Source of the DNA: an uncultured virus (IMG/VR IMGVR_UViG_3300000439_000022)
Taxonomy: Duplodnaviria; Heunggongvirae; Uroviricota; Caudoviricetes
Length of the DNA: 20,000 bases
Reading direction: 5' to 3' (one strand)
Virus record (IMG/VR): IMGVR_UViG_3300000439_000022
In this document: piece after piece, positions 1 to 16,710 of the stretch
How the letters are laid out: every line of letters begins with the position of its first letter
How positions within the stretch are numbered: the stretch's first letter is position 1
The notes under the pieces: generated by a model
Told to the model about the DNA's origin: nothing
Databases searched by the model: none
Seen by the model: only the letters and a program-made list of their open reading frames with translations
Translations under genes and position numbers: made by a program

Positions 1-1
1 A

Positions 2-499: not shown

Positions 500-502
500 T
501 AT

Positions 503-946: not shown

Positions 947-1085
947 GAACTTTAAGATAAGGTTCCCAGCCGCATATAAAATTTATATGGATGGCGATAA
1001 CCAGCTTGAGATGTTAAGATGGATTATCGATAATCTTGATAAGATAGCCCTAAACACTGAAAAAAATAAAAACATCAAAAAATAA
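921..1085 (+). CDS. small hypothetical protein (54 aa, MDQTQKTIENFKIRFPAAY...)
   Basis: Hand-translated ORF below the track cutoff; fills the gap before the next promoter. Confidence 0.5.
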   Translation: MDQTQKTIENFKIRFPAAYKIYMDGDNQLEMLRWIIDNLDKIALNTEKNKNIKK

Positions 1086-1102
1086 AATATCCCAAATTTT
1101 AT

Positions 1103-1133
1103 TTTGTTGCTAATTCGTTTTGTTGTATCTTTG
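1103..1133 (+). promoter_or_regulatory. Bacteroidota primary-sigma promoter (-33/-7)
   Basis: TTTG 1103-1106, 19-nt spacer, TATCTTTG 1126-1133. Confidence 0.75.
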
Positions 1134-1150
1134 TACGACAAAACGATTTT

Positions 1151-2188
1151 ATGTTAATTGAATATCCAAAAAATATTAGGTTTGGTTTTGAATCAACCTG
1201 GAGATTAAAGAATAAGGAACGTCAAAAAAATATTGATGACAACGGATCTTACTTAGACAAAACTGAACTTACTAAGAATAAAAAGTTCATGACCAAATTT
1301 GCTAAGCTTGACCAATTCAGAGAGATTGATGTTGACCCATATAATATTGAAATTCCAACTGTTAAGGTTGTGAATAAAAAATTATTGCTTGATCAATTCA
1401 CCAAGTTATCAAAATTAATGGATGAATATGGTTATATAGAATCAAGTCGTTCATTTAATAATAATTTTGAAGGGGGCGGACATATTCATATAGACTATAC
1501 TGGTATATTCACTAAGTTAGGATATGGTGTAGAATTGAATTTGTGGCTTAAAAAGATATTTAATCACACCGATGAAACATTAAATAAATTGGGCATGGGT
1601 TCGGAACCAACCTCTTCAGTATTTTTTGCTCCATTTTCATTATTTGTTCATAATCTCAATACCTTTATAATCAATAATCCATGGATTCCATGGACATTTA
1701 ATGATCCAAACGATAATTTAAATGCCATCAATAACATTATCAATAATTCATTGAATAAAGATATTGTTCAAATAAAAAAAGATGGTTTGATGCGTAGCGC
1801 CAATCTTAGTATTGATATAAAGAAATGGGCAATAACTGTAAGACCAGAATTCGGTACAATTGAGTTTCGTTTCTTTGGTATGCCCAAAAATGCTGATGAG
1901 TTGGAAACAAACATCGATTTAGCCATGGCTATTTACAAATACTGCTTTGACTTAACGGCAAAGGGAATCAAATTAGAAAGCCATTACAAGTCATGGAAAG
2001 ATTTTCGTAACATAAGTTACCCACAAGCAACCAGAGGCCTCAGAAAGGTCTGCAAATTGCTTAAAATCGATTATAATAAACTTAAAGATACTGGTAAAGT
2101 TAATAACATGAAAATAAGATACGCTTTTCATGAAACACTTATCAAATCTAAAGATTGGAATAAACTTACGCATCAAATATTAAATTAA
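1151..2188 (+). CDS. putative amidoligase (COOH-NH2 ligase, Amidoligase_2-like)
   Basis: Ordered motifs FGFE, D..NIEIPT, GGGHIHID and R...GTIEFRFF, typical of the glutamine synthetase/GCS-fold amidoligase family. Confidence 0.7.
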   Translation: MLIEYPKNIRFGFESTWRLKNKERQKNIDDNGSYLDKTELTKNKKFMTKFAKLDQFREIDVDPYNIEIPTVKVVNKKLLLDQFTKLSKLMDEYGYIESSRSFNNNFEGGGHIHIDYTGIFTKLGYGVELNLWLKKIFNHTDETLNKLGMGSEPTSSVFFAPFSLFVHNLNTFIINNPWIPWTFNDPNDNLNAINNIINNSLNKDIVQIKKDGLMRSANLSIDIKKWAITVRPEFGTIEFRFFGMPKNADELETNIDLAMAIYKYCFDLTAKGIKLESHYKSWKDFRNISYPQATRGLRKVCKLLKIDYNKLKDTGKVNNMKIRYAFHETLIKSKDWNKLTHQILN

Positions 2189-2194
2189 TAAATA

Positions 2195-2226
2195 TTTGTT
2201 TAGTAATTTTATTTATATTAATTTTG
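2195..2226 (+). promoter_or_regulatory. Bacteroidota promoter, probably leaderless transcript
   Basis: TTTG 2195-2198, 20 nt, TAATTTTG 2219-2226; ATG at 2231. Confidence 0.7.
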
Positions 2227-2230
2227 TGCT

Positions 2231-2407
2231 ATGACAGTTAAAGAATTTCAACAAGCTAAAATAGCTGTAGAATTGCAAATAGAAGCAATCTTAAATGATT
2301 TCAATCAAGTATGTGTTGTGAACGATTTTCAACTGGAAAAGGTTCAGATAAAAACAATCGGTACTGATGAAGATAGAATATTCAGCGTAGATTTATTAGT
2401 ATTATAA
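2231..2407 (+). CDS. small hypothetical protein (58 aa, MTVKEFQQAKIAVE...)
   Basis: Hand-translated ORF directly after a consensus promoter. Confidence 0.6.
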   Translation: MTVKEFQQAKIAVELQIEAILNDFNQVCVVNDFQLEKVQIKTIGTDEDRIFSVDLLVL

Positions 2408-2422
2408 TCAAAAATAAAATAT

Positions 2423-2620
2423 ATGAAACAAAATACATTAGCTTTAGTCCTCCTTATTATGTTAATATTCATTTGGACTGTGATTTTTACATCATGCAAT
2501 ACACATAAAGATGCGGATCAATATTATAAAAAAAATATTGACTCATTGGTAATACTTGACCATAGCAAAATCCCTGATTCATTACCAAATAATGTTCGTG
2601 ACACACCTGTTTGGGAATAA
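2423..2620 (+). CDS. putative lipoprotein
   Basis: MKQN, hydrophobic stretch, then FTSC lipobox-like site. Confidence 0.6.
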   Translation: MKQNTLALVLLIMLIFIWTVIFTSCNTHKDADQYYKKNIDSLVILDHSKIPDSLPNNVRDTPVWE

Positions 2621-2647
2621 GAAAGTTATCTATTACTAAAAGAAATA

Positions 2648-2679
2648 TTCGTTTTTTATAAAAACATAGCATATCTTTG
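2648..2679 (+). promoter_or_regulatory. Bacteroidota promoter, probably leaderless transcript
   Basis: TTCG 2648-2651, 20 nt, TATCTTTG 2672-2679; ATG at 2684. Confidence 0.65.
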
Positions 2680-2683
2680 ATTT

Positions 2684-3121
2684 ATGAAAAAGATAAACAA
2701 TTATTTTGATCACTTTTTTGAAAATCTTCACCTATTCAAAGTATGGGTTATTTTTTGTATTGTATGTACAATTATGTTCTTTTTAATATGGACAAGTATG
2801 GATAATCTTTTATCTACATCAAATGCTGATAAACTATCAAATCATCTTAAAGACCCAATTGCTTTTTATCTTACATTAGGTACTGTTATGGGTAGTTTGG
2901 GAACAATGTTGTTATCTCTTGGTCGTTATGCTCAAAAGTTTTATAGAGAGGCTGATATGATTGAGCAATTGGTTAAGACAGCTAATACCAAAGAGGAATT
3001 GGAACACATATGGGCTAATGAGTTCAAAGCTCTTGCAAATAAAAGTTTTCATCAACAAACTGGTTCCAGATTGCTTGAGATAAAAACTATCATCAAAACA
3101 AAATACGAAATATTTAAATAA
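2684..3121 (+). CDS. hypothetical membrane protein (2 TM)
   Basis: 145-aa ORF with two hydrophobic segments and a helical C-terminus. Confidence 0.7.
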   Translation: MKKINNYFDHFFENLHLFKVWVIFCIVCTIMFFLIWTSMDNLLSTSNADKLSNHLKDPIAFYLTLGTVMGSLGTMLLSLGRYAQKFYREADMIEQLVKTANTKEELEHIWANEFKALANKSFHQQTGSRLLEIKTIIKTKYEIFK

Positions 3122-3128
3122 ATAATAT

Positions 3129-3464
3129 ATGAGAATAAGTGCTATATTTTGGAATATCATTTATGTTGTTGTAAACTTAATTTTATTTCTAACAATTAAG
3201 GATTATATTTATCCTTATTGTATTTTTTCGTCCATTCTTGCTTATGCTTTCGCTTTTGCTTTCGCTTTTGATATATTAAGTAGGTCTAATAATTTCAAAA
3301 ACCAACCATGGATTTTTTTAACGCCAATTGGTTTGATAGGTTTGGCTTTTGCTGGAATTTATTATATCGTTCTTTTGGTTGAAGATAAATTTATTATACC
3401 CTTCAATAAGTGGATAAATGAAATAAATAGTGAAGTTGAAAATAACGAACCAGATTATCATTAA
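3129..3464 (+). CDS. hypothetical membrane protein (about 3 TM)
   Basis: 111-aa hydrophobic ORF, closely packed. Confidence 0.65.
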   Translation: MRISAIFWNIIYVVVNLILFLTIKDYIYPYCIFSSILAYAFAFAFAFDILSRSNNFKNQPWIFLTPIGLIGLAFAGIYYIVLLVEDKFIIPFNKWINEINSEVENNEPDYH

Positions 3465-3475
3465 TAAAAATATAT

Positions 3476-3691
3476 ATGAAACACAAAATTTTTAAAGGTT
3501 TATTAACATTTTTATTGTTAATATTAACATGTTCAATACTCACATTTCTTGGTTGGATGTTTATTTATCATCTTTTAATATCTGAGTTAATAATGGTAGG
3601 TGTTTTACTATTGCGGATTTTAATTATTTGGTTCAAATGGACATATAATATAATATCAAAAGTTTACGATAATTACAGATTAAATAAATAA
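3476..3691 (+). CDS. small membrane protein (2 TM)
   Basis: 71-aa hydrophobic ORF. Confidence 0.6.
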   Translation: MKHKIFKGLLTFLLLILTCSILTFLGWMFIYHLLISELIMVGVLLLRILIIWFKWTYNIISKVYDNYRLNK

Positions 3692-3692
3692 T

Positions 3693-3878
3693 ATGAAAAA
3701 AATAATTACAGATTGGGAATGGCTCTCATTAAGAATCATTACCTTATTCGCTTTGGCGATGTTAATATCATTCACACCAGAACTACTTCGTGGATTTTTT
3801 GGCGATGAATTATATGTTCCTCAAGGCGGCTTTGTTTCCTTATTCAGTTCTAATGGTGGTGGTTTTTTTTACCTTTAA
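3693..3878 (+). CDS. small membrane protein, possibly truncated
   Basis: 61-aa ORF with one TM; ends just after a T8 tract (3863-3870). Confidence 0.5.
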   Translation: MKKIITDWEWLSLRIITLFALAMLISFTPELLRGFFGDELYVPQGGFVSLFSSNGGGFFYL

Positions 3879-3889
3879 ATGGTATATTA

Positions 3890-3988
3890 ATGAGTGATAA
3901 AAAATTTTGGAATGAGGATTTGCCGATTGGTTTGATTATCCTTATAGTTATTGCGTTAGCGATATACCTATCATTCTCAACTATATGA
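3890..3988 (+). CDS. single-TM microprotein (32 aa, MSDKKFWNEDLPIGLIILIVIALAIYLSFSTI)
   Basis: ATGA overlap with the next gene; paralog at 6201-6314. Confidence 0.65.
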   Translation: MSDKKFWNEDLPIGLIILIVIALAIYLSFSTI

Positions 3989-4278
3989 ATATAATTAACA
4001 ATCAAAATATTGTCGATAAAACGCCTGTTATTACGGTTTTTTTATTGGAGGGTGCAAACATATCCCAGATACATAGAATGTGGACAGAACACAGTGCAAA
4101 TGGGCAATCCTTGCAAGGTTGGATATTTGTTACCATAGCTCTTATACTTTGGGCAAACTTTTATAGGGTGTGTTGTAAAGACCAAAAATGGGCATATTAT
4201 ACCACATTATTCGGAATATTTATAAATTTATTGTTAGTATTAACAGTAATATATTTTAGATACATACATCACCAATGA
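3985..4278 (+). CDS. PQ-loop/SemiSWEET-like 3-TM membrane protein
   Basis: ISQIHRMWTEHSANGQS resembles the PQ-loop signature xPQIx+...SAxGxS (P replaced by S); three TM segments; 97 aa. Confidence 0.55.
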   Translation: MNIINNQNIVDKTPVITVFLLEGANISQIHRMWTEHSANGQSLQGWIFVTIALILWANFYRVCCKDQKWAYYTTLFGIFINLLLVLTVIYFRYIHHQ

Positions 4279-4310
4279 ACTTATTCTAAGTTCTAAAAAT
4301 TATATAATTT

Positions 4311-4484
4311 ATGATATTTTTATTCCGTTGGTTTAAAAGATTGCTTGGCTTGATACTATTTGTTTGATTTGTTTTTGAGGCAATGTTATATGTTTTAACA
4401 TTAGGTATTTACGATCCATGGGATTTTTATGGCAATCCAGATTCAAAATTATTTAGATTGGCATTAAAACTTTTGGAAAGTTAA
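4311..4484 (+). pseudogene. small membrane protein interrupted by an in-frame TGA
   Basis: MIFLFRWFKRLLGLILFV*FVFEAMLYVLTLGIYDPWDFYGNPDSKLFRLALKLLES; TGA at 4365-4367 inside a continuous hydrophobic segment. Confidence 0.45.
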
Positions 4485-4503
4485 ATTAGTTTCCATATCT
4501 TTG
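4472..4503 (+). promoter_or_regulatory. Bacteroidota promoter, probably leaderless transcript
   Basis: TTTG 4472-4475, 20 nt, TATCTTTG 4496-4503; ATG at 4508. Confidence 0.75.
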
Positions 4504-4507
4504 TATT

Positions 4508-4678
4508 ATGAACGCAACAGAATATGAAAAGCGCAGAGATTACTTTTTAAAAGTTATGCGCAAACAAAATGCCATGTGGGAACGCAATATTGAAATGGAA
4601 GAAAAGGCCAGGAAACCACTTAGACAAAAAACATCGTCTGATATTCATAAACGTGTACCAACCAAAAGGTTTGTATGA
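4508..4678 (+). CDS. small basic hypothetical protein (56 aa, MNATEYEKRRDYFLKVM...)
   Basis: Hand-translated ORF directly after a consensus promoter. Confidence 0.6.
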   Translation: MNATEYEKRRDYFLKVMRKQNAMWERNIEMEEKARKPLRQKTSSDIHKRVPTKRFV

Positions 4679-4766
4679 TTAACATTAATACTAAAACAAG
4701 ACGTGATTTTGTTTCACCTGCATATACAACAAACTGGAATGAATTACCAATAGCATTTTAAAAGAT

Positions 4767-5033
4767 ATGGAATTTAATAAACTACAACGATTCGGAAACG
4801 ATCCAAAGATACCAACAGAGTTGCCAATATATCAAAAGAATATTATTGAAGCAATGCGCAACGGTAGTTTCATTTGGCAAGATGATTTTGATAAAGTCAC
4901 CTACCATATCAGAATTGGTAAAAAAATTCATACTTTGATTGAACCATTAATATGCACATTGATTTTCAGGAATCTAATATCCGATATTGATTATTCACTC
5001 ACTGAATATGGCGAAAAAGTTAAATTAATTTAA
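4767..5033 (+). CDS. hypothetical protein, possible winged-helix fold
   Basis: 88-aa ORF; C-terminal YSLTEYG resembles the wHTH wing Y.LT..G. Confidence 0.55.
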   Translation: MEFNKLQRFGNDPKIPTELPIYQKNIIEAMRNGSFIWQDDFDKVTYHIRIGKKIHTLIEPLICTLIFRNLISDIDYSLTEYGEKVKLI

Positions 5034-5044
5034 TAATAAATAAT

Positions 5045-5326
5045 ATGACATTAGAATCAATTAATAAACAAATCCAAGAATTGGAAGCTAAGAAAAAAGA
5101 ACTCTTAGAACAACTTGAATACGTTAAAAAGTTAAGCCCAGCTCAACGTCTGGCTGACCTGCTTCATTCAAAACAATGTCATTTTGCACACGAAGACCAA
5201 TGCGGTTGGTTTTATGAATCATGGGACAACCCAGGTTATTCTCGCAATGAATACCTTTCAAAAGCAAATAAAATGCTAAGGGAATTTGATTTCGATACCT
5301 GCTGTAAAATGGTCAACTTCGTTTAA
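5045..5326 (+). CDS. hypothetical phage protein (coiled coil plus His/Cys motif)
   Basis: 93 aa; LADLLHSKQCHFAHEDQCGWFYE may bind metal. Confidence 0.7.
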   Translation: MTLESINKQIQELEAKKKELLEQLEYVKKLSPAQRLADLLHSKQCHFAHEDQCGWFYESWDNPGYSRNEYLSKANKMLREFDFDTCCKMVNFV

Positions 5327-5328
5327 TC

Positions 5329-5526
5329 ATGACAGAACTTCAAACATTAAAAGAGGCTGAGATTATTCTTGCTGGTAATTATTGGGAAAACTTTAAATTT
5401 CAAAAGGATATTGCTATGTTCATGGGTGGTAATCACCCACGATTATTGAAACTTATTGATGAAACCAATAAAATACAAAAGGAGTGGCATGAAATAAAAG
5501 CAAAGATTGCTGCTCTTGAAAAATAA
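5329..5526 (+). CDS. hypothetical protein
   Basis: 65-aa ORF starting 2 nt after the previous stop. Confidence 0.65.
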   Translation: MTELQTLKEAEIILAGNYWENFKFQKDIAMFMGGNHPRLLKLIDETNKIQKEWHEIKAKIAALEK

Positions 5527-5527
5527 A

Positions 5528-5559
5528 TTTGGTTGTTCCAAAATTGTTTCATATCTTTA
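5528..5559 (+). promoter_or_regulatory. Bacteroidota promoter variant
   Basis: TTTG 5528-5531, 20 nt, TATCTTTA 5552-5559. Confidence 0.6.
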
Positions 5560-5578
5560 TGTTCTCAAACAAAATCTT

Positions 5579-5905
5579 ATGAACATATCAAACAATACAA
5601 CAACCGAAACTTGGTTAGATACATTCGTAAAAGCAACCTATAAAGGTTGGGAATGTTATATGGACTTCAATGGTGTTATGACCTGGTGGTGCAATGGCGC
5701 TCCAGGTTTTTGCCTTTTGGCAACTCCTGATTGGATCGGTTGTGGTTTCACACCAGTTGATTATACAACAGATTTGGATTATTATAATCTTGGAAAGATT
5801 GATAAATCAGACTTTAAAGACTTCACCGAATATGCCCAAGCAATTGAACCTTATCTTAATATCTTTTTAACTGAGGATGAAACAAACGATTTTTTAAATC
5901 ATTAA
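5579..5905 (+). CDS. hypothetical protein
   Basis: Track ORF 5507..5905; start moved to ATG 5579 (MNISNN) downstream of the promoter. Confidence 0.65.
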   Translation: MNISNNTTTETWLDTFVKATYKGWECYMDFNGVMTWWCNGAPGFCLLATPDWIGCGFTPVDYTTDLDYYNLGKIDKSDFKDFTEYAQAIEPYLNIFLTEDETNDFLNH

Positions 5906-5907
5906 AA

Positions 5908-6204
5908 ATGAACAAAAATAAACTTATTGCCAAATTTATGGGTTACATCACCGATGATACCCTTCTTGATAATTTTGATGAAACATATCCTGTACATAAG
6001 GATTGGAATCTATTATTTACTGTATTAGAAAAAATTGAATCACTTGGTTATCATCCAACTATATCAAAGCGACAATTCCAAGTATATTCATCAAACTGGA
6101 AAATGATAATTGATTCAGATTTTTATGATTCTTTCTTGGAAAATGCCTATCATGGTGTTAATGCCTTTATTAAATTTTATAACGAAAAAAATGGTTCCAT
6201 ATGA
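5908..6204 (+). CDS. phage protein, ABA-sandwich-like
   Basis: NKLIAKFMG ... HKDWNLLFTVLEKIE pattern recalled from Bacteroidota phage proteins. Confidence 0.5.
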   Translation: MNKNKLIAKFMGYITDDTLLDNFDETYPVHKDWNLLFTVLEKIESLGYHPTISKRQFQVYSSNWKMIIDSDFYDSFLENAYHGVNAFIKFYNEKNGSI

Positions 6205-6314
6205 GAAAATCTCGATTCTGGCTTGAAGACTTGCCACTTGCATTATTATATATAATGTTTTTTGTTTGTATATTCTTATTTGGATATCTAACCTTCACAT
6301 CACTTATTAATTAA
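6201..6314 (+). CDS. single-TM microprotein (37 aa, MRKSRFWLEDLPLALLYIMFFVCIFLFGYLTFTSLIN)
   Basis: ATGA overlap with the previous gene; paralog of 3890-3988. Confidence 0.65.
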   Translation: MRKSRFWLEDLPLALLYIMFFVCIFLFGYLTFTSLIN

Positions 6315-6330
6315 TATAAAATATAATAAT

Positions 6331-6897
6331 ATGTCAGATTTATTAAAATTGGTAAAATTTTGCTTAAACGATAAAGATTTTTATTTATCAAAATCAAAAA
6401 AGAAATCTATTAAACGTTATTTTGTAGATGATTACGGTTCAGATGCGATTAGATGTGATATAGATTTTGATTCTATTCAACCAACTATTAAAAACAAATA
6501 TATCTTAGATTTAAAATCTAAAATGTATCAATCAATCAGAAAGACATTTGATTTATCTAAAAGATTATCACCAGAGTCTTGTTTAGAAATAAATTTTGAA
6601 GATCAGCCGCCAATCAATATATTTGATGCCTTTAAAGTTAACGAGAGTAAACCATTTGATGCTAAATTTACCATAGATAAAAAATTCCCTTTCTTTAAGA
6701 AAGAAATCGAATATACATTTAACTATGTTGCAAATTTCGTGGTTAAGAAATATTATATATCTTGCGGTTCAATTAAAGAAGAAATAACACATGAACAATT
6801 TTTAGAATTGGTCAAATTATTTGAAGATAATAAGAAAATACTTCGAGAAGAGGCTGATAGGGAAAAAATTAGCAAAAGACTAAGCAATTATCAATAA
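6331..6897 (+). CDS. hypothetical protein, paralog of 8772..9395
   Basis: Shared FCLNDKxFY, IQP, INFxDxPP, YTFNY and RLSxY motifs. Confidence 0.8.
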   Translation: MSDLLKLVKFCLNDKDFYLSKSKKKSIKRYFVDDYGSDAIRCDIDFDSIQPTIKNKYILDLKSKMYQSIRKTFDLSKRLSPESCLEINFEDQPPINIFDAFKVNESKPFDAKFTIDKKFPFFKKEIEYTFNYVANFVVKKYYISCGSIKEEITHEQFLELVKLFEDNKKILREEADREKISKRLSNYQ

Positions 6898-6907
6898 CAT
6901 TACATAA

Positions 6908-7420
6908 ATGTCCAATATCAAAATTTTCAATTTATTAGGTATACGCCATACTGGTGAGGTATTATACTCTGATGATAAAAGATTCTATTGTTATGAGGAT
7001 ATTATCGTTGATTTGCATAATAAAAAATCAATACAATTAACAGAGTTAACACCAACTAATCTACTATCCAAACAACTTGGATTGGATTTAGAATACATTA
7101 TTGTTTATGTTGAAAATGATTTCGATAGTGAACTTTGTAACGGACAAGACGGTATTCGTTATGGTGCTTATAACCGTCTTGTATTTAAATTGGATGATTT
7201 TGAAATAGAGATTAATGAACATCCAAATGGTCAAAAATATTACATTCATTATAATGATAGTTATAATAAAAATATTAAACCAACAACTATAAGATTTGTG
7301 TGTTATAAGTGGGAAGAAAATATTTGGATCAAAGAAATAATCTTTGATTTATATAGTGAAAAAATAAATTATAAAAAATATCCAGATTTGATTAAAAGAA
7401 ATATCAATAGATATCAATAA
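6908..7420 (+). CDS. hypothetical protein
   Basis: 170-aa ORF, convergent with the next gene. Confidence 0.65.
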   Translation: MSNIKIFNLLGIRHTGEVLYSDDKRFYCYEDIIVDLHNKKSIQLTELTPTNLLSKQLGLDLEYIIVYVENDFDSELCNGQDGIRYGAYNRLVFKLDDFEIEINEHPNGQKYYIHYNDSYNKNIKPTTIRFVCYKWEENIWIKEIIFDLYSEKINYKKYPDLIKRNINRYQ

Positions 7421-8607
7421 TTAATCATATCTTTCATTCTATCCAAAGACTCATTCAAAGACTCATTAGATTTCTTACCCCATTTGCTACCCTTTTTAGG
7501 CGTACCACAAGATGCTGGTGTTGGTCTGCAAGCTGGATATTTTCTATTCTCTCCAGGTTTTCTACCACAGGCTTTGCAGGTCTTTCTTCCAGATGGATTA
7601 GTTTTGCATGTATTACAATCAACCCAACCTTTTGATCCTCCGCCACCTTTTCTTGAAAACCAACCATGTAAACCCTGGGATTTCTCCTTTGAATAATCCG
7701 TTTTCTTTGCTTCATCCATATCATTCAATTCGGTTGTATCATCGATAAGATATTGATTTGCCTTTTCAAAATTGAATATTACATATTCATAATGTCCTTG
7801 CTGCATACCATCATAACCTAACTTTAAAATAAGCTCCGACCAAAGTTTATCTGTATCCCAGCTTATTTTATTACTAAATATTCTCCACCCATACCATATA
7901 GATTCACGACCAATCAATTTTTTAAAAATATCAGCAATAAAATCATACATAGAACCTAAATGGATATTAATATCCATGGTTTCTTTTGCTATTTGTTCGA
8001 TATTATTTACTAATGTTTCATCTATCTTATCATTTAAATCTAAAATATTAAGATTAGATATATCTAATTTAGTAATTTCTTTACCGTAGTCTTTAGCTTT
8101 ATATACGCTCGATGAAAAATATGTACCCCAACCTAAATTAGCTCTTAACCCACCTCTAATAGAATCAGGATCCAATTTGGTAATTTTTTTGTCACCACCG
8201 TGATATACAATTTCAGGACTTGAAAATTCAGCTTCACTCACAGATTTTGAACTGGTTTCACCACCAGCTTGTCTTTTCTTTCTGCCAGCACAATGAGCTT
8301 TTTGACTAAAACCCTTTGGATGTGAACAATCTATACTTTTCTTGTACTTTTTTGTCCATTTTTCAGCAATTTCTTCATCGGTTTCTTCCAAACCTTCAGA
8401 TTTGCTACCCCAATTGCTTGCCCCAGCTTTGCGACATTTAACCAATGCACCACTGGCATAAGCAGATGGCCATACCTTGTATCTGCTCTTAACCTTATAG
8501 TAACACGCATCCTTTTTCTCAGCAAGTTGTTCTTCGCTAAGTTCTGAATCATCAGCAATTTCCAATAATCTGTTAATTTGTTCTTCTGAAAGTTTAAATT
8601 TTGACAT
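7414..8607 (-). CDS. modular Cys-rich phage protein with a central ADP-ribosyltransferase-like (ART-PolyVal-type) domain
   Basis: VYHGG..., GWGTYFSSS..KAKDYG and GYDG.....EYVIFN (H-Y-E clade ART pattern), flanked by basic Cys-rich modules (DACYYKVKSRYKVWPSAYASG; SIDCSHPKGFSQKAHC; GLHGWF...WVDC...CGR...YPACRP). Confidence 0.7.
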   Translation of the reverse strand: MSKFKLSEEQINRLLEIADDSELSEEQLAEKKDACYYKVKSRYKVWPSAYASGALVKCRKAGASNWGSKSEGLEETDEEIAEKWTKKYKKSIDCSHPKGFSQKAHCAGRKKRQAGGETSSKSVSEAEFSSPEIVYHGGDKKITKLDPDSIRGGLRANLGWGTYFSSSVYKAKDYGKEITKLDISNLNILDLNDKIDETLVNNIEQIAKETMDINIHLGSMYDFIADIFKKLIGRESIWYGWRIFSNKISWDTDKLWSELILKLGYDGMQQGHYEYVIFNFEKANQYLIDDTTELNDMDEAKKTDYSKEKSQGLHGWFSRKGGGGSKGWVDCNTCKTNPSGRKTCKACGRKPGENRKYPACRPTPASCGTPKKGSKWGKKSNESLNESLDRMKDMINY

Positions 8608-8625
8608 TTGTAATGAAGAATTTTA

Positions 8626-8634
8626 TATAAATAT
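8626..8634 (-). promoter_or_regulatory. candidate phage late-type promoter motif ATATTTATA (TATAAATAT on +)
   Basis: 18 nt upstream of the inverted 397-aa gene, which lacks a TAnnTTTG promoter; the + strand reads as the T4 late consensus TATAAATA. Confidence 0.3.
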
Positions 8635-8665
8635 TTGGTATTTCGGTTAAAAACACATATCTTTG
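8634..8665 (+). promoter_or_regulatory. Bacteroidota promoter
   Basis: TTTG 8634-8637, 20 nt, TATCTTTG 8658-8665. Confidence 0.7.
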
Positions 8666-8706
8666 TGTTCAAAATCAATAAAAATAACAAAAATTCTCCC
8701 TCTATA

Positions 8707-8738
8707 TTTGTTTGAATTAAAAAAATTGTTTACCTTTA
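8707..8738 (+). promoter_or_regulatory. second, tandem Bacteroidota promoter variant
   Basis: TTTG 8707-8710, 20 nt, TACCTTTA 8731-8738. Confidence 0.55.
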
Positions 8739-8771
8739 TATTATGATACCAAAATTTACAAATATTAATAT

Positions 8772-9395
8772 ATGAAAGAAAAATTAATACAATTGGCAAG
8801 CTTTTGCCTGAATGACAAATCATTTTATAATCAAATGGTAATTTATAATCAAATGGTAATCTCAAAAAAAGATATCCAAAAGACCTTTGGTACAGGTTAT
8901 GAAACTTTTTATTCCCATAAAAGGGATTATAATATTGATAGCTCAACCATTCAACCCAAAGTTAGTGATAAGATTAAATCAACTATACTCAATACTTTTC
9001 ATGAAGAACTTCAAAAAAATAATGAGCCTATTGAGTGTACTATTCCAATGCTAACCATAAACTTTTCAGATATGCCACCGTTAAATATTTACAGGAGATA
9101 TTTGACAATAGGTCAAACTGATAAAGTTGGTTATGTTACTATAAATAAAAAAATACTGTTTTTTAATATTCCAAAAGTATATACCTTTAATTATACCGAA
9201 TATACTCGTGGTATTCAATATTTTATAAAATCAGCGACAGTTGAAGAACAAGTAACTGAAGAGGAATATTATAAACTAATTGATTTATATGACAAAACCT
9301 TTACTGAAGTTGAGGATGAGAATGCTCAACTAAAAATTAAAAATGATATATTAAAGGTTGATGAAAGATTATCCGTATATTTGCAAAATAAATAA
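8772..9395 (+). CDS. hypothetical protein, paralog of 6331..6897
   Basis: 207 aa; colinear shared motifs with 6331..6897. Confidence 0.8.
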   Translation: MKEKLIQLASFCLNDKSFYNQMVIYNQMVISKKDIQKTFGTGYETFYSHKRDYNIDSSTIQPKVSDKIKSTILNTFHEELQKNNEPIECTIPMLTINFSDMPPLNIYRRYLTIGQTDKVGYVTINKKILFFNIPKVYTFNYTEYTRGIQYFIKSATVEEQVTEEEYYKLIDLYDKTFTEVEDENAQLKIKNDILKVDERLSVYLQNK

Positions 9396-9402
9396 AAACA
9401 CA

Positions 9403-9945
9403 ATGTCAAAAACAATTGAAATATCCGATGAAATGTATGGCAAGTTAATTGAACTTGCAACGGAAATGACCACACAAAACCCAAGATGCACTCGTATGCC
9501 CCATATATTTCAAATTAGAAATTGGAAAAAGGTATACGATGCTGAATTGAATGGAGACATTCACATCTTTTTGGATAGAGGTAATGGTATTGAGATAGAA
9601 ACAGTCGAACAACTTATTAACTACCTGAATGATTCTAATGTCGAATTCGTTGAGGCGGAAGTTAAAGAGATGTGGGATAACCGTTCCGAATACTCATGGC
9701 AAGATGACCTTAAAGATTGGTTAGAGGAACGAGTTCCAGATCTTGAGGTATATTCATACTCATTAGTACCAGAATATACCAATTGTTTCTTAACAGCCAA
9801 GGCCGCTGAGGAACATCTTAAACTTAACCATTACCACTACCATGCGAATGCTGATGTTTATCTTAATCATGCCTGGAGAAACCCAGAAGCAGAATTAGTT
9901 AGCACATTCCTATGCAATTTGATTGGCAAAGATTTGCACACATAA
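9403..9945 (+). CDS. conserved phage hypothetical protein
   Basis: Track ORF 9358..9945; likely start MSKTIEISDE at 9403; TQNPRCT..P.IFQI and FLT.KAAEEHL..N.YHY motifs. Confidence 0.7.
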   Translation: MSKTIEISDEMYGKLIELATEMTTQNPRCTRMPHIFQIRNWKKVYDAELNGDIHIFLDRGNGIEIETVEQLINYLNDSNVEFVEAEVKEMWDNRSEYSWQDDLKDWLEERVPDLEVYSYSLVPEYTNCFLTAKAAEEHLKLNHYHYHANADVYLNHAWRNPEAELVSTFLCNLIGKDLHT

Positions 9946-10043
9946 TGTCCGTGGAAAACAAATATAAAACTAAAAAATTTATCGATGGTTGTATGTTAGC
10001 ATATAACGCAAAAGAAAATATTGATTTTCATTAAAATAACATT

Positions 10044-10232
10044 ATGACTTTAGAAGAAGCAAGAGTTGCAATTTCAGAGGGTAAAAAAGTAACCCACAGA
10101 TACTTCACCGATGATGAATATATTCACATGGGTAAGAACGGTATTTCCTTTGAGGATGGTGTTAAAGTCCCAGCTGATTGGTGGGACAAAGATTATTTAA
10201 AAACAGATTGGAGCATATATCAAAAAGATTAA
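10044..10232 (+). CDS. small phage protein, distantly DUF2829/Tad2-like
   Basis: MTLEEA..AI.EGKKVTHRYF ... terminal DW pattern. Confidence 0.45.
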   Translation: MTLEEARVAISEGKKVTHRYFTDDEYIHMGKNGISFEDGVKVPADWWDKDYLKTDWSIYQKD

Positions 10233-10233
10233 T

Positions 10234-10452
10234 ATGGAAAAGAAATATATAATAACTCAAGAACAATTTGAACAGATTGGACATTATAAAAGAATGTTCG
10301 AACTTAATGCACAATGCATATCAGACTTATGCAATTGCGAAAAAGATGATATTGTTTATGGTTTTGAACTTGGCAAAATGCATACACACCTCAGAGATTG
10401 TTATATTGAGATGATGGAGCTGGAAAATGAAATTAAGGAACAGAAAATGTGA
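10234..10452 (+). CDS. hypothetical protein
   Basis: 72-aa ORF starting 1 nt after the previous stop. Confidence 0.65.
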   Translation: MEKKYIITQEQFEQIGHYKRMFELNAQCISDLCNCEKDDIVYGFELGKMHTHLRDCYIEMMELENEIKEQKM

Positions 10453-10456
10453 AAAG

Positions 10457-10781
10457 ATGGAATATAAATTAACAAAAAAATATCAACATAGCAAAAAATG
10501 CAATGATAACAGAAGAAGAAATTTCTTAATCTTCTTCCTTAATGATATACAAATATTTAAACAAAAAGTTCCATATGATGAAAACTTTGACCATGGTTGC
10601 CAAAACAGAACATCATTTGATAATATCTATCTTTTAAACGGTTATATTAACCAAAAAAGACAATCTGATGCTAATGTTAGCTGTTTCGGAAATGAGAGAA
10701 GTAAAATATCCTGTATCAAAAAAGATATTGGAACAATTCAATATACCAAAAGATCTTAAAATTAAATTGTCAAATGATTAA
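10457..10781 (+). pseudogene. hypothetical protein, probably frameshifted
   Basis: The frame from ATG 10457 stops at 10759, while the +1 frame (open 10638-10781) gives a more protein-like tail (REVKYPVSKKILEQFNIPKDLKIKLSND) that overlaps the next start. Confidence 0.4.
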
Positions 10782-10977
10782 ATGTACAGATAAAGGCATG
10801 TGGACTTGTATCGGAAAAAACGGTACACCAAAAAAACAATTCCCAGATGATAAATCGGCAATATCTGCCGCCAAACTTATCAATGAGAATAACCCACAAC
10901 CATTTACAAAACTCGTTGCGTATAAATGCACACAATGTAACAAATATCATCTAACTACCAGAAATAAGAAAATTTAA
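10774..10977 (+). CDS. small zinc-ribbon phage protein
   Basis: C...KKQF.....A ... AYKCTQCNKYHLTT. Confidence 0.7.
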   Translation: MIKCTDKGMWTCIGKNGTPKKQFPDDKSAISAAKLINENNPQPFTKLVAYKCTQCNKYHLTTRNKKI

Positions 10978-11301: not shown

Positions 11302-11565
11302 ATGAAAACCGAACAAGAAATAAAAGAATTAGCTAATAAGATATATAAACATGATGGCATAATCACAAGTGGATTAGATTATGAGATTGTGGATTCAATA
11401 CAAGATAAAAAGGAAGGTTTTGTACGTGCATACATGCTTGCTCAAACCGATATGCAAGCTCATTTTATAAATGAAGCTATTGGATTTGCAGAGTGGATAG
11501 TAGGTTTTATTGGACTTGTAATTGATGTAAAAGACATTTATAAACGCAAAAATAATAACATATGA
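11302..11565 (+). CDS. hypothetical protein
   Basis: 87-aa ORF, ATGA overlap with the next gene. Confidence 0.6.
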   Translation: MKTEQEIKELANKIYKHDGIITSGLDYEIVDSIQDKKEGFVRAYMLAQTDMQAHFINEAIGFAEWIVGFIGLVIDVKDIYKRKNNNI

Positions 11566-12224
11566 CACCATATAAATTAACGGATGAAAAAATACAATTC
11601 AATTTCAAAACACTTTACCGTATTGAATTAACAGAAGATTGCATATGGGGAAAAGCTGGAACAAAAGGTGGTTTTATTGAGAAAGTGAGTAACTTATTGG
11701 ATGATGCTTGGGTATCTGGTAATGCTCACGTATATGGTAATGCTTATGTATCTGGTAATGCTTGGGTATTAGGTAATGCTCAGGTATATGGTAATGCTCA
11801 CGTATCTGGTAATGCTCAGGTATTTGATAATGCTTGGGTATCTGGTAATGCTCACGTATCTGGTAATGCTCAGGTATTTGATAATGCTTGGGTATCTGGT
11901 AATGCTCACGTATATGGTAAATCTGAGGTATCTGGTAATGCTCAGGTATTAGGTAATGCTCAGGTATTTGGTAACGCTTTAGTTTCTGGTATGGTTGTAA
12001 TATGTGGTGAAGCTAAAGTTGAGAAAACATCAGATTATATGACAATATCCTCTTTGGGTAACACAAATAGGACAATAACCATTACATTTTCAGATAAAAT
12101 GATATCAGCTGGCTGTTTCAGAGGAACACTCCAACAATTTAAAACCGCCGTTGATGAAAAATACAACGGAAAAGGTAATTACTACCCAACAATACAATAT
12201 ATTGAAACATTATTTAATATGTAA
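11562..12224 (+). CDS. hexapeptide-repeat (left-handed beta-helix, YdcK-like) phage protein
   Basis: LYRI...G..GGFIE..NL N-terminus, 16 NAxVxG-type hexapeptides, AGCFRGTL..F C-terminus. Confidence 0.85.
   Translation: MTPYKLTDEKIQFNFKTLYRIELTEDCIWGKAGTKGGFIEKVSNLLDDAWVSGNAHVYGNAYVSGNAWVLGNAQVYGNAHVSGNAQVFDNAWVSGNAHVSGNAQVFDNAWVSGNAHVYGKSEVSGNAQVLGNAQVFGNALVSGMVVICGEAKVEKTSDYMTISSLGNTNRTITITFSDKMISAGCFRGTLQQFKTAVDEKYNGKGNYYPTIQYIETLFNM
11703..11990 (+). repeat. coding 18-bp tandem repeat x16
   Basis: Consensus aatgctNNNgtatNtggt; includes an exact 54-bp higher-order duplication (NAHVSG-NAQVFD-NAWVSG twice). Confidence 0.9.
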
Positions 12225-14216: not shown

Positions 14217-14387
14217 ATGACCAAAGCACAACAACTGGGGATAACAGAATTTCCATACCAAGAATTTGATTCCAACGGTAAACTTACTTATCATGAAGAT
14301 TCAACTGGGTCTTGGCATAAATTTGAATATGATTCCAACGGTAATGAAAGCTATTGGGAAATTTACCAGAATATGGCACCCATATGA
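14217..14387 (+). CDS. short DSNG-repeat phage protein, possibly truncated (56 aa)
   Basis: MTKAQQLGITEFPYQEFDSNGKLTYHEDSTGSWHKFEYDSNGNESYWE...; 15-bp direct repeat at 14267 and 14330 (21-aa period). Confidence 0.6.
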   Translation: MTKAQQLGITEFPYQEFDSNGKLTYHEDSTGSWHKFEYDSNGNESYWEIYQNMAPI

Positions 14388-14557
14388 CATTAGAAACCTT
14401 CATAGCAAACGTTAATTGTGGCGGATTTATCGACTATGACGGAATAGGTAACTACGCAACAAATACTCAAATGTCCAATATAGAAATATACCCAAGCGAT
14501 ATAAAATCTGGAACATACAGAAAAGATTTTACACATATAGTATGGTTTAATCGCTAA
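14354..14557 (+). CDS. hypothetical phage protein, possibly N-terminally truncated
   Basis: LPEYG..MTLETF...V..GGFIDYDG.G.YA motif; nearest ATG (14384) overlaps the upstream stop. Confidence 0.6.
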   Translation: MGNLPEYGTHMTLETFIANVNCGGFIDYDGIGNYATNTQMSNIEIYPSDIKSGTYRKDFTHIVWFNR

Positions 14558-14604
14558 TACACACACACACACAAATTTTAAATTAATATCTGAATTTTAC
14601 TAAT

Positions 14605-15966
14605 ATGTCAATCATCACAAGAAAAATTAAACTAATCCCAGTAGGAGAAACCAGCAAAGATAGAACAAAAGTCTATAACTTTATTAAAGATATATCCAAA
14701 GAACTCGCAACAGTAGGAAACCAAATTATTAGACAACACGTCAATAATAACTTTAACCTTAAAGAAATCCTTGATACAGAAAAATGTACCAAAAAAATTG
14801 CCGTGGAAAAACTTACAGCACAACTCACCACCTCAATCCAAAATAGCGGCTACAGAATAACCACCTCCCTACCACATATAGCATCAGACATCAGATCAAA
14901 TCTGAACCAAGATATATATAAAACCATAACCGAAAACTTCTACGATATACTAAATAATAAAGTATCAATCCCTTCCTACAAATCAGAAAAACTGCCAATC
15001 AGATTCTCAAATAAAATATATTTAGATAATAACAAATATCTAATAGATTTCCCAATCACACAAACACAAAAACAAAAATTTAATAATATATCATTCGAAC
15101 TCTTCTTCGGAAAAGATAAATCCAATAACAAAATTATTGTAAGAAAAACCATTACACAAGAATATAAAATGTGCAATAGCTCATTACAATATAACGGAAA
15201 AGATCTTTTCCTCTACCTAACAGTCAATATACCAGAAACAAAATCAAAAGATATCATCCCAAATAAAACAATGGGAATCGATATGGGCATCAATAGACCA
15301 GTCTCATTCTTTATCACAGATGAAGAAAAACAACCATACCAAATCGATATAAACTCCAAAATACAACACGATAGAATGAGAATGCTAAAACATAGACAAT
15401 CAATTGCAAAAGCTCTCAAACTAACAACTGGCGGTCACGGAAGAACCAAAAAACTTAAAGCACTCGAACAATTCAGAGATAAAGAAAAAAATTGGGCGCA
15501 AACCACAAACCATAGAATATCTGCCGAAATTATCAAAATAGCACAACAATATAACGTGGGTATCATAAAGATGGAAGACCTAACTGGAATCACCAAAGAT
15601 ACAAATAACCAATTCCTTAAATCTTGGGCTTACTTCCAACTGCAAACATATATCAAATATAAAGCAGAAATGGCTGGAATTACAATCCAATGGGTTAACC
15701 CAAAAAATACTTCCAGAGAATGCCCAACCTGCCACACAATCAATGAGGAAAATAGATCAAAACAAGACTATACCAAATTCGAATGCGTTAACACAGCTTG
15801 CACCGATTACCTAAAAACCCTCGATGCAGATATCGTGGCAGCAACAAATATAGCACACAAATTGGGACTGGAAGAAAAACCAAACTCAAAAGCTGGAAGA
15901 ATTAAAGCCGCTAAACTAAAAAAATCTCAAGAAATTCCTCAACAAAATTTGGAACTATCAATTTAA
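14605..15966 (+). CDS. cas12f: Cas12f-like (Cas14/TnpB-family) RNA-guided nuclease, 453 aa
   Basis: RuvC-I GIDMG (D226), RuvC-II MEDL (E324), zinc finger CPTC...C....C (C373/376/394/399), RuvC-III DADIVAATNIA (D409); ITRKIKL N-terminus; adjacent CRISPR array; no tnpA in the window. Confidence 0.88.
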   Translation: MSIITRKIKLIPVGETSKDRTKVYNFIKDISKELATVGNQIIRQHVNNNFNLKEILDTEKCTKKIAVEKLTAQLTTSIQNSGYRITTSLPHIASDIRSNLNQDIYKTITENFYDILNNKVSIPSYKSEKLPIRFSNKIYLDNNKYLIDFPITQTQKQKFNNISFELFFGKDKSNNKIIVRKTITQEYKMCNSSLQYNGKDLFLYLTVNIPETKSKDIIPNKTMGIDMGINRPVSFFITDEEKQPYQIDINSKIQHDRMRMLKHRQSIAKALKLTTGGHGRTKKLKALEQFRDKEKNWAQTTNHRISAEIIKIAQQYNVGIIKMEDLTGITKDTNNQFLKSWAYFQLQTYIKYKAEMAGITIQWVNPKNTSRECPTCHTINEENRSKQDYTKFECVNTACTDYLKTLDADIVAATNIAHKLGLEEKPNSKAGRIKAAKLKKSQEIPQQNLELSI

Positions 15967-15979
15967 TTCACTACATTTG
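15948..15979 (+). promoter_or_regulatory. Bacteroidota promoter for the guide-RNA locus
   Basis: TTTG 15948-15951 (inside the cas 3' end), 20 nt, TACATTTG 15972-15979. Confidence 0.75.
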
Positions 15980-15983
15980 TAAC

Positions 15984-16164
15984 ATAATTAATAGCTCTTA
16001 ATTTATTGATAAAATAAGGTTCCAAATTAATATTTGGATCGTGCTGGCTGTACAGCATAAGGTGAACAATGAATAAACATTGTAAATATTTTAATATGTT
16101 AGGAGGAATTATCCTCACTCACCAAATACCTTTTAAACTTATACCACCTAAAGGTATATACAAC
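15984..16164 (+). ncRNA. putative tracrRNA/omegaRNA-like scaffold fused to a half-repeat
   Basis: Hairpins TCCAAAT/ATTTGGA (16021-16038), GTGCTG/CAGCAT (16041-16058), ACAATG/CATTGT (16066-16083) and GAGGA/TCCTC (16103-16116), the last two enclosed by GGTGA/TCACC (16061-16123); anti-repeat ATACCTTTTAAA at 16126-16137; 5' end inferred from the promoter. Confidence 0.7.
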
Positions 16165-16359
16165 ACATTTCCAAAACGTTTTACCAAAACAATGGTGTAA
16201 AAGACCACAATTTGAAAGGTATATACAACATAGAACAGATCAACCATAACGCAGAAGTGGTGTAAAAGACCACAATTTGAAAGGTATATACAACCCTGAA
16301 CAAAACCCATTAATTCATCCACTGGTGTAAAAGAACACAATTAAAAAGGTATATACAAC
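16150..16359 (+). CRISPR. mini CRISPR array: half-repeat plus 3 repeats, 3 spacers
   Basis: Repeat GGTGTAAAAGACCACAATTTGAAAGGTATATACAAC (36 bp; 37 if the shared preceding T is counted) at 16194-16229, 16259-16294 and 16324-16359 (last has 3 mismatches); 15-bp 3' half at 16150-16164; unique 29-nt spacers at 16165-16193, 16230-16258 and 16295-16323; 65-bp period. Confidence 0.95.
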
Positions 16360-16378
16360 AAATACCAGCCTTTTTTTT
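16343..16378 (+). terminator. possible intrinsic terminator at the array end
   Basis: GGTAT/ATACC stem (16348-16366) using the last repeat, followed by T8 at 16371-16378. Confidence 0.45.
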
Positions 16379-16528
16379 ATATCTATCTGTATTCAGATCA
16401 ATAAAATTAATACTAAATTAATGCCTTTTAATACCGAGAATATATTATAGATAAAAACATATGAATTCTATAGAAATATACTCATCTGTATTCATTATGT
16501 AAACCCTTGCTAATCAAGCATTTATGAG

Positions 16529-16564
16529 GTGTGGAAAAGTGGTAAATTGTGGTAGAAAATGGTA
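16529..16564. repeat. 10-bp-phased (G)TGGTA direct repeats, MraZ-box/iteron-like
   Basis: GTGT 16529, GTGG 16539, GTGG 16549, ATGG 16559 in non-coding AT-rich DNA. Confidence 0.55.
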
Positions 16565-16710
16565 AAAAAAAATAGTGAATACAATACAAAGAATTTGACA
16601 CCCTCTCCTATTTAACAAATATTTTTTTTAATTATATGTAATTCTTTGAATTCTGCGCCCCATTCCTACCCCTTACATGAATACATATAATTTTTTGTTA
16701 TATGAATTCT

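Follow-up and report, generated by a model that had tools for sequence, protein, structure and literature searches.

The nearest characterized relatives of the system described here are Al3Cas12f and Al1Cas12f1 of the Cas12f-MG119 family, which derive from Alistipes-type contigs. According to the account in PMC13186708, Al3Cas12f (PDB: 9NZO and 9NZR), whose contig was assigned to Alistipes, acts with an experimentally validated single-guide RNA (sgRNA) composed of an anti-repeat, a GAAA loop, the 3' part of the repeat, a 7-nt tag and the guide. CRISPR systems of types V-F and V-U without adaptation genes had already been described in huge phages in 2020 (Al-Shayeb et al. 2020, PMC7162821). In a lineage leading from Cas12f to an RpoE-associated, nuclease-dead Cas12f (dCas12f), published accounts further describe fusion of the trans-activating CRISPR RNA (tracrRNA) to a half repeat and tandem "omegaRNA arrays" (Altae-Tran et al. 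2023, PMC10691335; Hoffmann et al. 2025 preprint, PMC12259090). Here we analyze a stretch of 20,000 nucleotides (hereafter the window) from the uncultured virus record IMGVR_UViG_3300000439_000022 of IMG/VR, in which positions 14605-16378 very probably make up a type V-F (Cas12f) cassette for CRISPR interference that is self-contained and that a large phage with a probable Bacteroidota host carries as a movable add-on. As far as the 2020 paper describes the huge-phage variants, this locus resembles them in combining a phage-borne type V effector of class 2, whose catalytic residues are conserved, and a small array with no Cas1, Cas2 or Cas4; an earlier note, made from the letters of this DNA, had pointed to that precedent.

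The cas12f gene (14605-15966; this and all other features of the cassette lie on the plus strand) is the sole long open reading frame (ORF) of that region and encodes a protein of 453 residues, the start of which (MSIITRKIKLIPVGE...) agrees with the consensus start of its homologues. Its length falls among the roughly 400-700 residues of Cas12f effectors, which have one split RuvC domain and a TNB zinc finger. The RuvC residues D226/E324/D409 and the four-cysteine zinc finger pointed out in the earlier note proved to be invariant, the latter as C373/C376/C394/C399, in an alignment of 31 sequences comprising the protein and 30 homologues down to 40% identity. The Cas12f-like identity proposed in the same note was likewise borne out by the hidden Markov model searches that it had called for: the PADLOC models Cas12u3 (E = 1.9e-90) and Cas12f (E = 5.4e-88) both matched end to end, and the Pfam model Cas12f1-like_TNB scored 54.4 bits against a cut-off of 26.3 (E = 1.4e-14), with OrfB_IS605 giving a sub-threshold match. 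The Cas12f1 group that the Cas12u3 model matches is of V-U3 origin. Assignment to Cas12f2 (Cas14b) was rejected, the NCBIfam model CRISPR_Cas12f2 reaching 98.7 bits with a cut-off of 450.

Comparison with solved structures gave a concordant picture. In a sequence search of the PDB the 14 top matches of 15 were Cas12f or dCas12f proteins, led by Al3Cas12f (E = 5e-51) and followed in order by SpCas12f1, CnCas12f1, AsCas12f, RhCas12f, OsCas12f, a nuclease-dead Cas12f and Un1Cas12f. Searching with a profile of 31 family members gave that order again, with Al3Cas12f at 8e-81 and dCas12f (9n9c) detectable at 1.8e-38, and recovered no TnpB structure at E <= 0.001; in these PDB searches Cas12f alone matched down to 1e-28. 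An AlphaFold2 model of the protein (predicted local distance difference test score 85.3; predicted template-modelling score 0.67), when searched with Foldseek, found AsCas12f (template-modelling score, TM, 0.74-0.83) and Al3Cas12f (TM 0.70) as its top matches, against about 0.5 for TnpB; the E-values were 1e-28 to 1e-17 for Cas12f and 1e-12 for TnpB, the latter being fifteen orders weaker. Profile searches, experimental structures and the modelled fold agree in making this a Cas12f and not a transposon TnpB.

Within Cas12f, the protein is closest to Al3Cas12f, with which it shares the best sequence match among solved structures, the fold and a link to Bacteroidota. The scaffold RNA also follows the order given for Al3Cas12f in PMC13186708: hairpin stems come first, next a closing helix with CACUCA.. 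at its end, after it the anti-repeat, and lastly a repeat 3' end (..AAC), a 7-nt tag and the guide. The two differ in length (488 residues in Al3Cas12f versus 453), in the first ~77 residues, which in a single-sequence search remain unaligned to the longer N-terminal recognition (REC) helices of Al3Cas12f, in that the present system is phage-borne, and in the loop joining anti-repeat and repeat, which is natural here and, as described in PMC13186708, a laboratory GAAA loop in the Al3Cas12f sgRNA. AsCas12f1, CnCas12f1, SpCas12f1, OsCas12f and RhCas12f are comparable in the full-length match to PADLOC Cas12u3, in the superposition (best for AsCas12f) and in having an array without cas1, cas2 or cas4; they differ in showing 22-28% identity over the Foldseek alignments and in the sequences of repeat and scaffold. 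The lineage is accordingly a sub-clade within the Cas12f branch that holds Al3Cas12f, AsCas12f and CnCas12f, itself without a characterized member and found so far almost exclusively on large phage contigs. The earlier suggestion of an uncharacterized lineage was overstated in this respect.

Homologues were gathered from several sources. A protein collection yielded 193 clusters at E <= 0.001 (identity 97% to 39% among the 120 matches listed), several of them on contigs 117-340 kb in length. Loci with flanking sequence were obtained from IMG/VR (L005, of which L006 is the same region, and L007-L011; 41-53% identity), where a scan of viral contigs by alignment retrieved them and a single-protein query retrieved none; from metagenomes (L084, which is the same as the window and lies on a 144-kb contig, and L085-L095, with L089 dropped as a 1.5-kb contig with unusable flanks); and from species genomes (L164; 45% identity, on a 248-kb contig of G002, a Flavobacteriaceae-labelled metagenome-assembled genome). 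The species-genome scan used two peptide patterns, and Cas12f proteins lacking these, such as those of the Al3 type, would escape it; the other 44 loci that it returned have a best-segment identity of at most 41%, nearly all matching part of the protein. Repeat units with a common end motif adjoin the gene in 17 of the 17 informative relatives, about 14 of which have regular arrays with a 65-66-nt period, the remaining three (L090, L091 and L164) having modules of short units, a split made partly by eye. All 17 relatives with flanking DNA have the same scaffold beside the repeats. The flanking genes vary between loci, and none of the 73 flanking ORFs (>=99 aa) in 15 relatives encodes Cas1, Cas2, Cas4, a Y1 transposase or a recombinase. 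The absence of cas1, cas2, cas4 and tnpA from the window, which had been claimed from its sequence, was upheld among the 29 ORFs scanned with Pfam, where neither these nor a serine transposase was found; transposon ends were not formally searched.

These results bear directly on an alternative in which the gene belongs to an IS200/IS605-type TnpB transposon, its omegaRNA being merely followed by repeats and its role being transposon maintenance rather than immunity. Public sources do name the homologues "IS605 OrfB family transposase", the NCBIfam model guided_TnpB scores above its cut-off (152.9 versus 100 bits), and the scaffold occupies the position of an omegaRNA, even overlapping the 3' end of the ORF in L008, L010, L087 and L088. 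However, guided_TnpB covers the broad family of RNA-guided TnpB proteins, and a match to it is expected because Cas12f descends from TnpB; the Cas12f profile scores about twice as high as the TnpB model, the profile search of the PDB is free of TnpB at the threshold given above, no Y1 or serine transposase occurs in the ORFs of the window or of the relatives' flanks, and regular repeat-spacer arrays stand beside the gene in the relatives. Moreover, the distant TnpB-like genes are multi-copy (e.g. seven loci in one Geobacillus genome), whereas members of the present family occur once per contig. We therefore regard a TnpB transposon as extremely unlikely, and the homologues, being array-linked and without transposases, run counter to the outcome that the earlier note had named as fatal to its proposal, a TnpB whose homologues have no link to arrays. 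TnpB and its omegaRNA nonetheless remain an instructive comparison in their ancestral fold, in a scaffold that lies 3' of the gene or overlaps it, and in a single RNA that carries its guide 3'-terminally, a format echoed by the fused unit described below; the differences are the lack of a detected transposase here, the presence of spacers between repeats and the weaker structural similarity. The TranC proteins, transposon-CRISPR intermediates, are small TnpB-like effectors said to use both a single scaffold-and-guide RNA and CRISPR RNAs (crRNAs). LaTranC is a weak Foldseek match (rank 40, TM 0.47), and the protein of the window is a Cas12f by every profile used.

Downstream of the cas12f stop codon lies a non-coding stretch of 227 nt (15967-16193), in a window that is AT-rich throughout (G+C 31.1%). 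It contains TACATTTG (15972-15979), a match to the Bacteroidota-type -7 box and a candidate promoter of the scaffold-array transcript, then a tracrRNA-type scaffold RNA (16010-16137; covariance-model match of 93.5 bits, supported by covariation and the minimum-free-energy fold). The array spans 16129-16359. Its first unit (16129-16164) is truncated at the 5' end, with AAAGGTATATACAAC (16150-16164) alone retained: its identity to the full repeat is as low as 0.25 in the first 20 nt and stands at 0.94 in the last 16, and just the final 15-16 nt of the repeat remain. Directly 3' of this half repeat, which is fused to the scaffold, comes spacer 1 (16165-16193; 29 nt), a candidate guide of a natural sgRNA, followed by full repeat 1 (16194-16229; 36 nt), spacer 2 (16230-16258; 29 nt), full repeat 2 (16259-16294; 36 nt), which is the same as repeat 1, spacer 3 (16295-16323; 29 nt) and a terminal repeat (16324-16359), a degenerate distal copy with three mismatches. 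A weak hairpin, GGUAU...AUACC, then leads into eight T residues (16371-16378), the two together occupying 16345-16378 and forming the likely end of the transcript. The repeat finder (three copies, 65-nt spacing) and Tandem Repeats Finder (16150-16364; period 65, 3.3 copies, score 191) agree on the three-spacer array of 65-bp period that had been noticed by inspection, and the former also detected an inverted repeat in a later repeat copy. The ..ACAAC end of the repeat is typical of the family, judging from the crRNA 3' ends given in the supplement of PMC13186708 (..GAAUAUCCAAC and ..GUGUGAAC, among others). Two minus-strand ORFs over the scaffold and array (15963-16118 and 16119-16340) are without support and were taken as spurious.

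The scaffold comprises stem 0 (16022-16037), stem 1 (16041-16046 with 16053-16058; GUGCUG...CAGCAU), a closing helix GGUGA:UCACC (16061-16065 with 16119-16123), stem 2 with an AAUAAA loop (16066-16071 with 16078-16083), a variable stem 3 (16103-16107 with 16112-16116) and the anti-repeat AUACCUUU (16126-16133). Every locus of the family shows the same order: hairpin, stem 1, GGUGA, stem 2, stem 3, the anchor CACUCACCAA, which supplies the UCACC partner of GGUGA, and the anti-repeat. The fold of 16018-16193 has an energy of -41 kcal/mol (z = -4.58), which none of 200 shuffles equalled, and its single-sequence prediction gives the same helices as the covariation model. For the latter, 22 modelled pairs were evaluated across 25 aligned modules, with controls in which the partner was slid by 1-3 columns and with 500 shuffles. 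Standard pairs occupy 91.2% of the cells versus 33-45% when slid, 16 of the 22 pairs have changed on both sides versus 4-11, and the covariation score is 0.532 versus at most 0.153; in none of these measures did any of the 500 shuffles reach the observed value. Pairing reaches 97-99% in stems 1 and 2 and in the closing helix and 66% in stem 3, which is poorly aligned; the closing helix occurs as GGUGA:UCACC, AGUGA:UCACU and CCUGA:UCAGG. The structured non-coding region that the note had described is thus both unusually stable and conserved with covariation.

A covariance model built on this alignment was run on both strands of 197 sources totalling 1.15 Mb (L001-L004, L006, L084 and L201-L208 were left out as duplicates or because of their size) and found 27 sites. 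All 27 are on the strand of the gene, and none lies outside the window and the 17 family loci; two of them (the third module of L091, and L092) were not in the training set. No site was found beside ~175 more distant TnpB- or Cas12-like genes or in 38 kb of phage DNA upstream of the window. A search of Rfam gave no scaffold family, its one match (E = 0.76) lying far under the gathering score. The anti-repeat 8-mer pairs with the downstream repeat at 8 of 8 positions in the window and in 11 of the 16 modules with a recurrent downstream repeat, and the two change in a compensatory manner, from AUACC:GGUAU in most loci to AUCCC:GGGAU in L092 and CAACC:GGUUG in L009. Many of the family loci have two scaffold-array modules, one on either side of the gene. 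On a 91.5-kb IMG/VR contig (L212:1812-2152), a scaffold with a fused unit and three full repeats stands alone, the 2 kb to each side being free of cas12f homologues; it is an orphan guide module, whose nuclease may be encoded elsewhere in that phage. In L008, L010, L087 and L088, the ORFs of which encode 475-486 residues, the downstream scaffold lies inside the last ~70-90 nt of the ORF and the fused half repeat starts immediately behind the stop codon, as in the arrangement of tnpB and its omegaRNA.

The truncated first repeat unit deserves closer attention. In the window it comprises the anti-repeat (16126-16133), a 16-nt loop, the half repeat AAAGGUAU-AUACAAC (16150-16164) and spacer 1, and the anti-repeat forms with AAAGGUAU (16150-16157) a cis hairpin of 8 bp and -6.2 kcal/mol. 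The first repeat-type 3' tag ends 10-28 nt past the scaffold in 18 of the 27 modules, which must have a truncated first unit, the tag being too close for a full 36-nt repeat. Two modules (the upstream one of L088, and L094) have a full repeat directly after the scaffold; in the other seven the divergence of the first unit defeated the script, and by eye six are degenerate half units and one (L093) is a near-full repeat. Because the anti-repeat is joined in cis to the half repeat, spacer 1 is probably a natural single guide, and the unit as a whole, in which the anti-repeat is hairpinned to the half repeat and followed by the spacer, is a candidate natural sgRNA as judged from the sequence. We propose, tentatively and with somewhat short of an even chance, that the clade natively uses two guide formats per cassette, a chimeric RNA of scaffold, half repeat and guide alongside crRNAs that borrow the scaffold in trans, and that it would represent a nuclease-active living intermediate between split tracrRNA/crRNA pairs and the re-fused single guides of dCas12f.

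The parallel with the dCas12f lineage lies, as the published accounts describe it, in the fusion of the tracrRNA with a half repeat in which the repeat's 3' end is preserved, and in tandem scaffold-and-guide units like those of L091 and L164. The same accounts describe a nuclease that has been inactivated, has lost its link to an array and has gained sigma genes, whereas here the RuvC site is intact, full arrays stand beside the fused unit and the carriers are phages. The fused scaffold-guide and the duplicated modules are for us the most interesting part of the system, one with a published precedent in a related nuclease-dead lineage. If the two-format proposal is true, these cassettes offer ready-made minimal sgRNA designs; and the fused unit, conserved across many phages beside normal arrays, is a simple system in which to study how an omegaRNA was split into tracrRNA and crRNA and re-fused. 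L091 (1688-2217) contains three tandem scaffold copies, behind each of which come a very short fused hairpin and then two guides, the first ~18 nt long, separated by a mini repeat of 28 nt, and L164 has two such short modules (3762-3877 and 5321-5437) flanking the gene; both resemble the "omegaRNA arrays" of dCas12f lineages.

Several observations weigh against an active interference cassette or against parts of it as drawn here. The array is tiny, with three spacers, and the repeats at both of its ends are imperfect. A terminator scan of the window gave results at chance level, and the hairpin before the T-run falls below the G+C criterion of that scan, for which reason the transcript end at 16371-16378 can be given only as likely. 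Sigma-70-type promoter matches are no commoner than in shuffles (15 versus 13.5 +/- 3.9 expected), and the promoter proposed in the earlier note is borne out in part, by the TAnnTTTG box at 15972-15979. The hairpin of the fused unit has 8 bp in cis, whereas pairing with the full repeat in trans gives 12 bp. Protospacers were not found for any of the three spacers: a blastn search of 50,697 phage records gave repeat-spanning or low-complexity matches (E ~2), exact 20-22-nt seeds of spacers 1, 2 and 3 had zero occurrences each in IMG/VR, the window and the fetched loci contain no match at up to 7 mismatches and no 18-nt seed match at up to 2 mismatches, and in 401 genomes of the family of G002 there were 14 weak matches (per-genome E 5e-4 to 1e-2, best 23 of 24 nt), roughly the level of chance.

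The difference between 8 and 12 bp means that the fused unit could be a decayed first repeat rather than a selected sgRNA, that is, a leader-proximal repeat whose remains have been kept through pairing with the anti-repeat. Recurrence of the truncated unit in at least 18 of the 27 modules, which come from different phages, argues for selection and against random decay. More broadly, the small array with its truncated first and degenerate last repeat, the lack of detectable protospacers and the lack of adaptation genes in the 58 kb searched (the window and the 49-kb record G001 that overlaps it; Cas1 was not found in G001, and the control was detected in 7 of 14 genomes) would all fit a decaying, non-functional CRISPR remnant picked up by the phage. 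Such a remnant is very improbable in our view, since the ORF is intact and its catalytic and zinc-binding residues are invariant among the homologues, the helices of the scaffold have been kept by compensatory changes, the anti-repeat and repeat co-vary, and the truncated first unit itself recurs among the modules as described above.

A third alternative is that the system, or at least its fused first guide, serves mainly as an RNA-guided regulator that binds without productive cutting, for which the Cas9 tracr-L sgRNA and the Bacteroidota dCas12f-sigmaE systems are precedents. Chimeric single guides are native, according to PMC12259090 and PMC10691335, to the related nuclease-dead dCas12f lineage, of which a member is detectable with our profile, and a phage "dCas14" repressor has been proposed in PMC7162821. 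This too is very unlikely, the RuvC triad being intact and invariant and spacer 1 being a full-length guide of 29 nt, not a shortened one, without a match in the window or the fetched loci at the mismatch limit given above. Furthermore, no rpoE, helix-turn-helix (HTH) or other sigma gene adjoins cas12f, either among the ORFs of the window or among the 73 flanking ORFs of the relatives. Membership in a dCas12f-sigmaE system was considered separately and rejected, given the intact triad and the lack of an adjacent sigma or HTH gene.

With these alternatives weighed, a compact Cas12f interference cassette is the reading that we favor, and its working can be sketched by homology with the characterized Cas12f enzymes as described in PMC13186708. 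A single transcript running from the TACATTTG box to the T-run would yield both the scaffold and the guides. A dimer of Cas12f would bind one scaffold:guide RNA, read a short 5' protospacer-adjacent motif (PAM) and cut double-stranded DNA that matches approximately the first 20 nt of the spacer. The PAM is T-rich in Al3Cas12f and its relatives (that of Al1Cas12f1 is given as DTTR in 10.1101/2024.02.06.578965) and would probably contain T here as well. Spacer 1 would be used as a natural sgRNA, and spacers 2 and 3 would pair with the scaffold RNA in trans. As adaptation genes are lacking, the array would be either inherited or served by the Cas1-Cas2 of the host. The likely use of such a cassette would be against competing phages or other mobile elements, with the host as a further possible target, making it a further case of phage CRISPR interference without adaptation genes. 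The family adds a well-delimited, phage-associated clade to Cas12f, with many clusters on contigs of 130-340 kb. With 453 residues the protein has a size of the kind sought for genome editors delivered by viruses, the architecture of its guide RNA is legible directly in the DNA, and its nearest characterized relatives already serve as editors; it is, however, not smaller than enzymes already in use, so that its earlier description as hypercompact was overstated.

The phage setting is supported by the DNA that precedes the window. Positions 1-10912 are 100% identical to the end of the IMG/VR virus record G001, which is rated 16% complete, and in the 38.5 kb that this record adds upstream 31 of 46 ORFs (>=119 aa, >=360 nt) have counterparts among phage protein families (E <= 1e-5). 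Among these are a head maturation protease, enzymes of NAD salvage, homing endonucleases, an RNA ligase and a sigma factor. Phage-type neighbours, as originally perceived from the window, are thus supported at the level of the genome; of the 30 ORFs within the window, 9 have a match in PHROGs, for the most part to families with no assigned function.

Bacteroidota promoters have TAnnTTTG as their -7 box. This motif occurs 52 times versus 36.2 +/- 6.2 expected, a count reached by 2 of 200 shuffles, and often just upstream of ORF starts; the copy at 15972-15979 sits 38 nt before the scaffold. An exact match lies at most 90 nt upstream of 10 of the 27 scaffold modules, versus 7% of random 100-nt windows. 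These boxes, together with the sole close genomic match in a Flavobacteriaceae-labelled genome and the nearest characterized relative on an Alistipes contig, make a Bacteroidota host likely, in keeping with the host named in the earlier note.

The first guide of one of the relatives (L095:4013-4041), lying behind its fused unit, is identical over 19-22 nt to L132:2505-2526, L139:759-777 and L106:2505-2523, and matches L030:1166-1187 at 21 of 22 positions. The matched segment is coding and conserved (..DLVYKKGKFY..) in the TnpB-like genes that these four unrelated contigs carry; the match begins at nt 3 of the guide, and its 5' flank is AAGC or AGGC, not T-rich. The guide could be a spacer from a TnpB-carrying element, or the match could be due to chance in a database enriched for such genes.

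Further features were noted around the cassette and elsewhere in the phage. An (AC)7.5 microsatellite (14559-14573) lies 32 nt upstream of the cas12f start, between it and the stop of the ORF at 14354-14557, and is possibly a slippage site affecting expression. On the other side, a 330-nt non-coding stretch (16379-16710) separates the array from convergent minus-strand genes, and this region holds a direct repeat, TATCTGTATTCA, at 16378 and 16477, 3.5 copies of AAAAATGGTA (16535-16569) and several inverted repeats. An 18-nt tandem repeat (11711-11978; 14.9 copies, Tandem Repeats Finder score 340) lies inside the ORF at 11562-12224, which matches the YdcK beta-solenoid repeats and phrog_7964 and therefore encodes a hexapeptide-repeat protein. 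The minus-strand ORF at 7414-8607 (397 aa) has a sub-threshold match to PF18760 (25.4 versus 31.2 bits), the ADP-ribosyltransferase of polyvalent phage proteins, along with a match to phrog_727. Finally, G001 encodes a ribose-phosphate pyrophosphokinase (L209:2447-3412), a nicotinamide phosphoribosyltransferase (L209:6235-7821) and a NUDIX hydrolase (L210:2229-2615), an NAD-salvage set that could offset NAD-depleting defences of the host.

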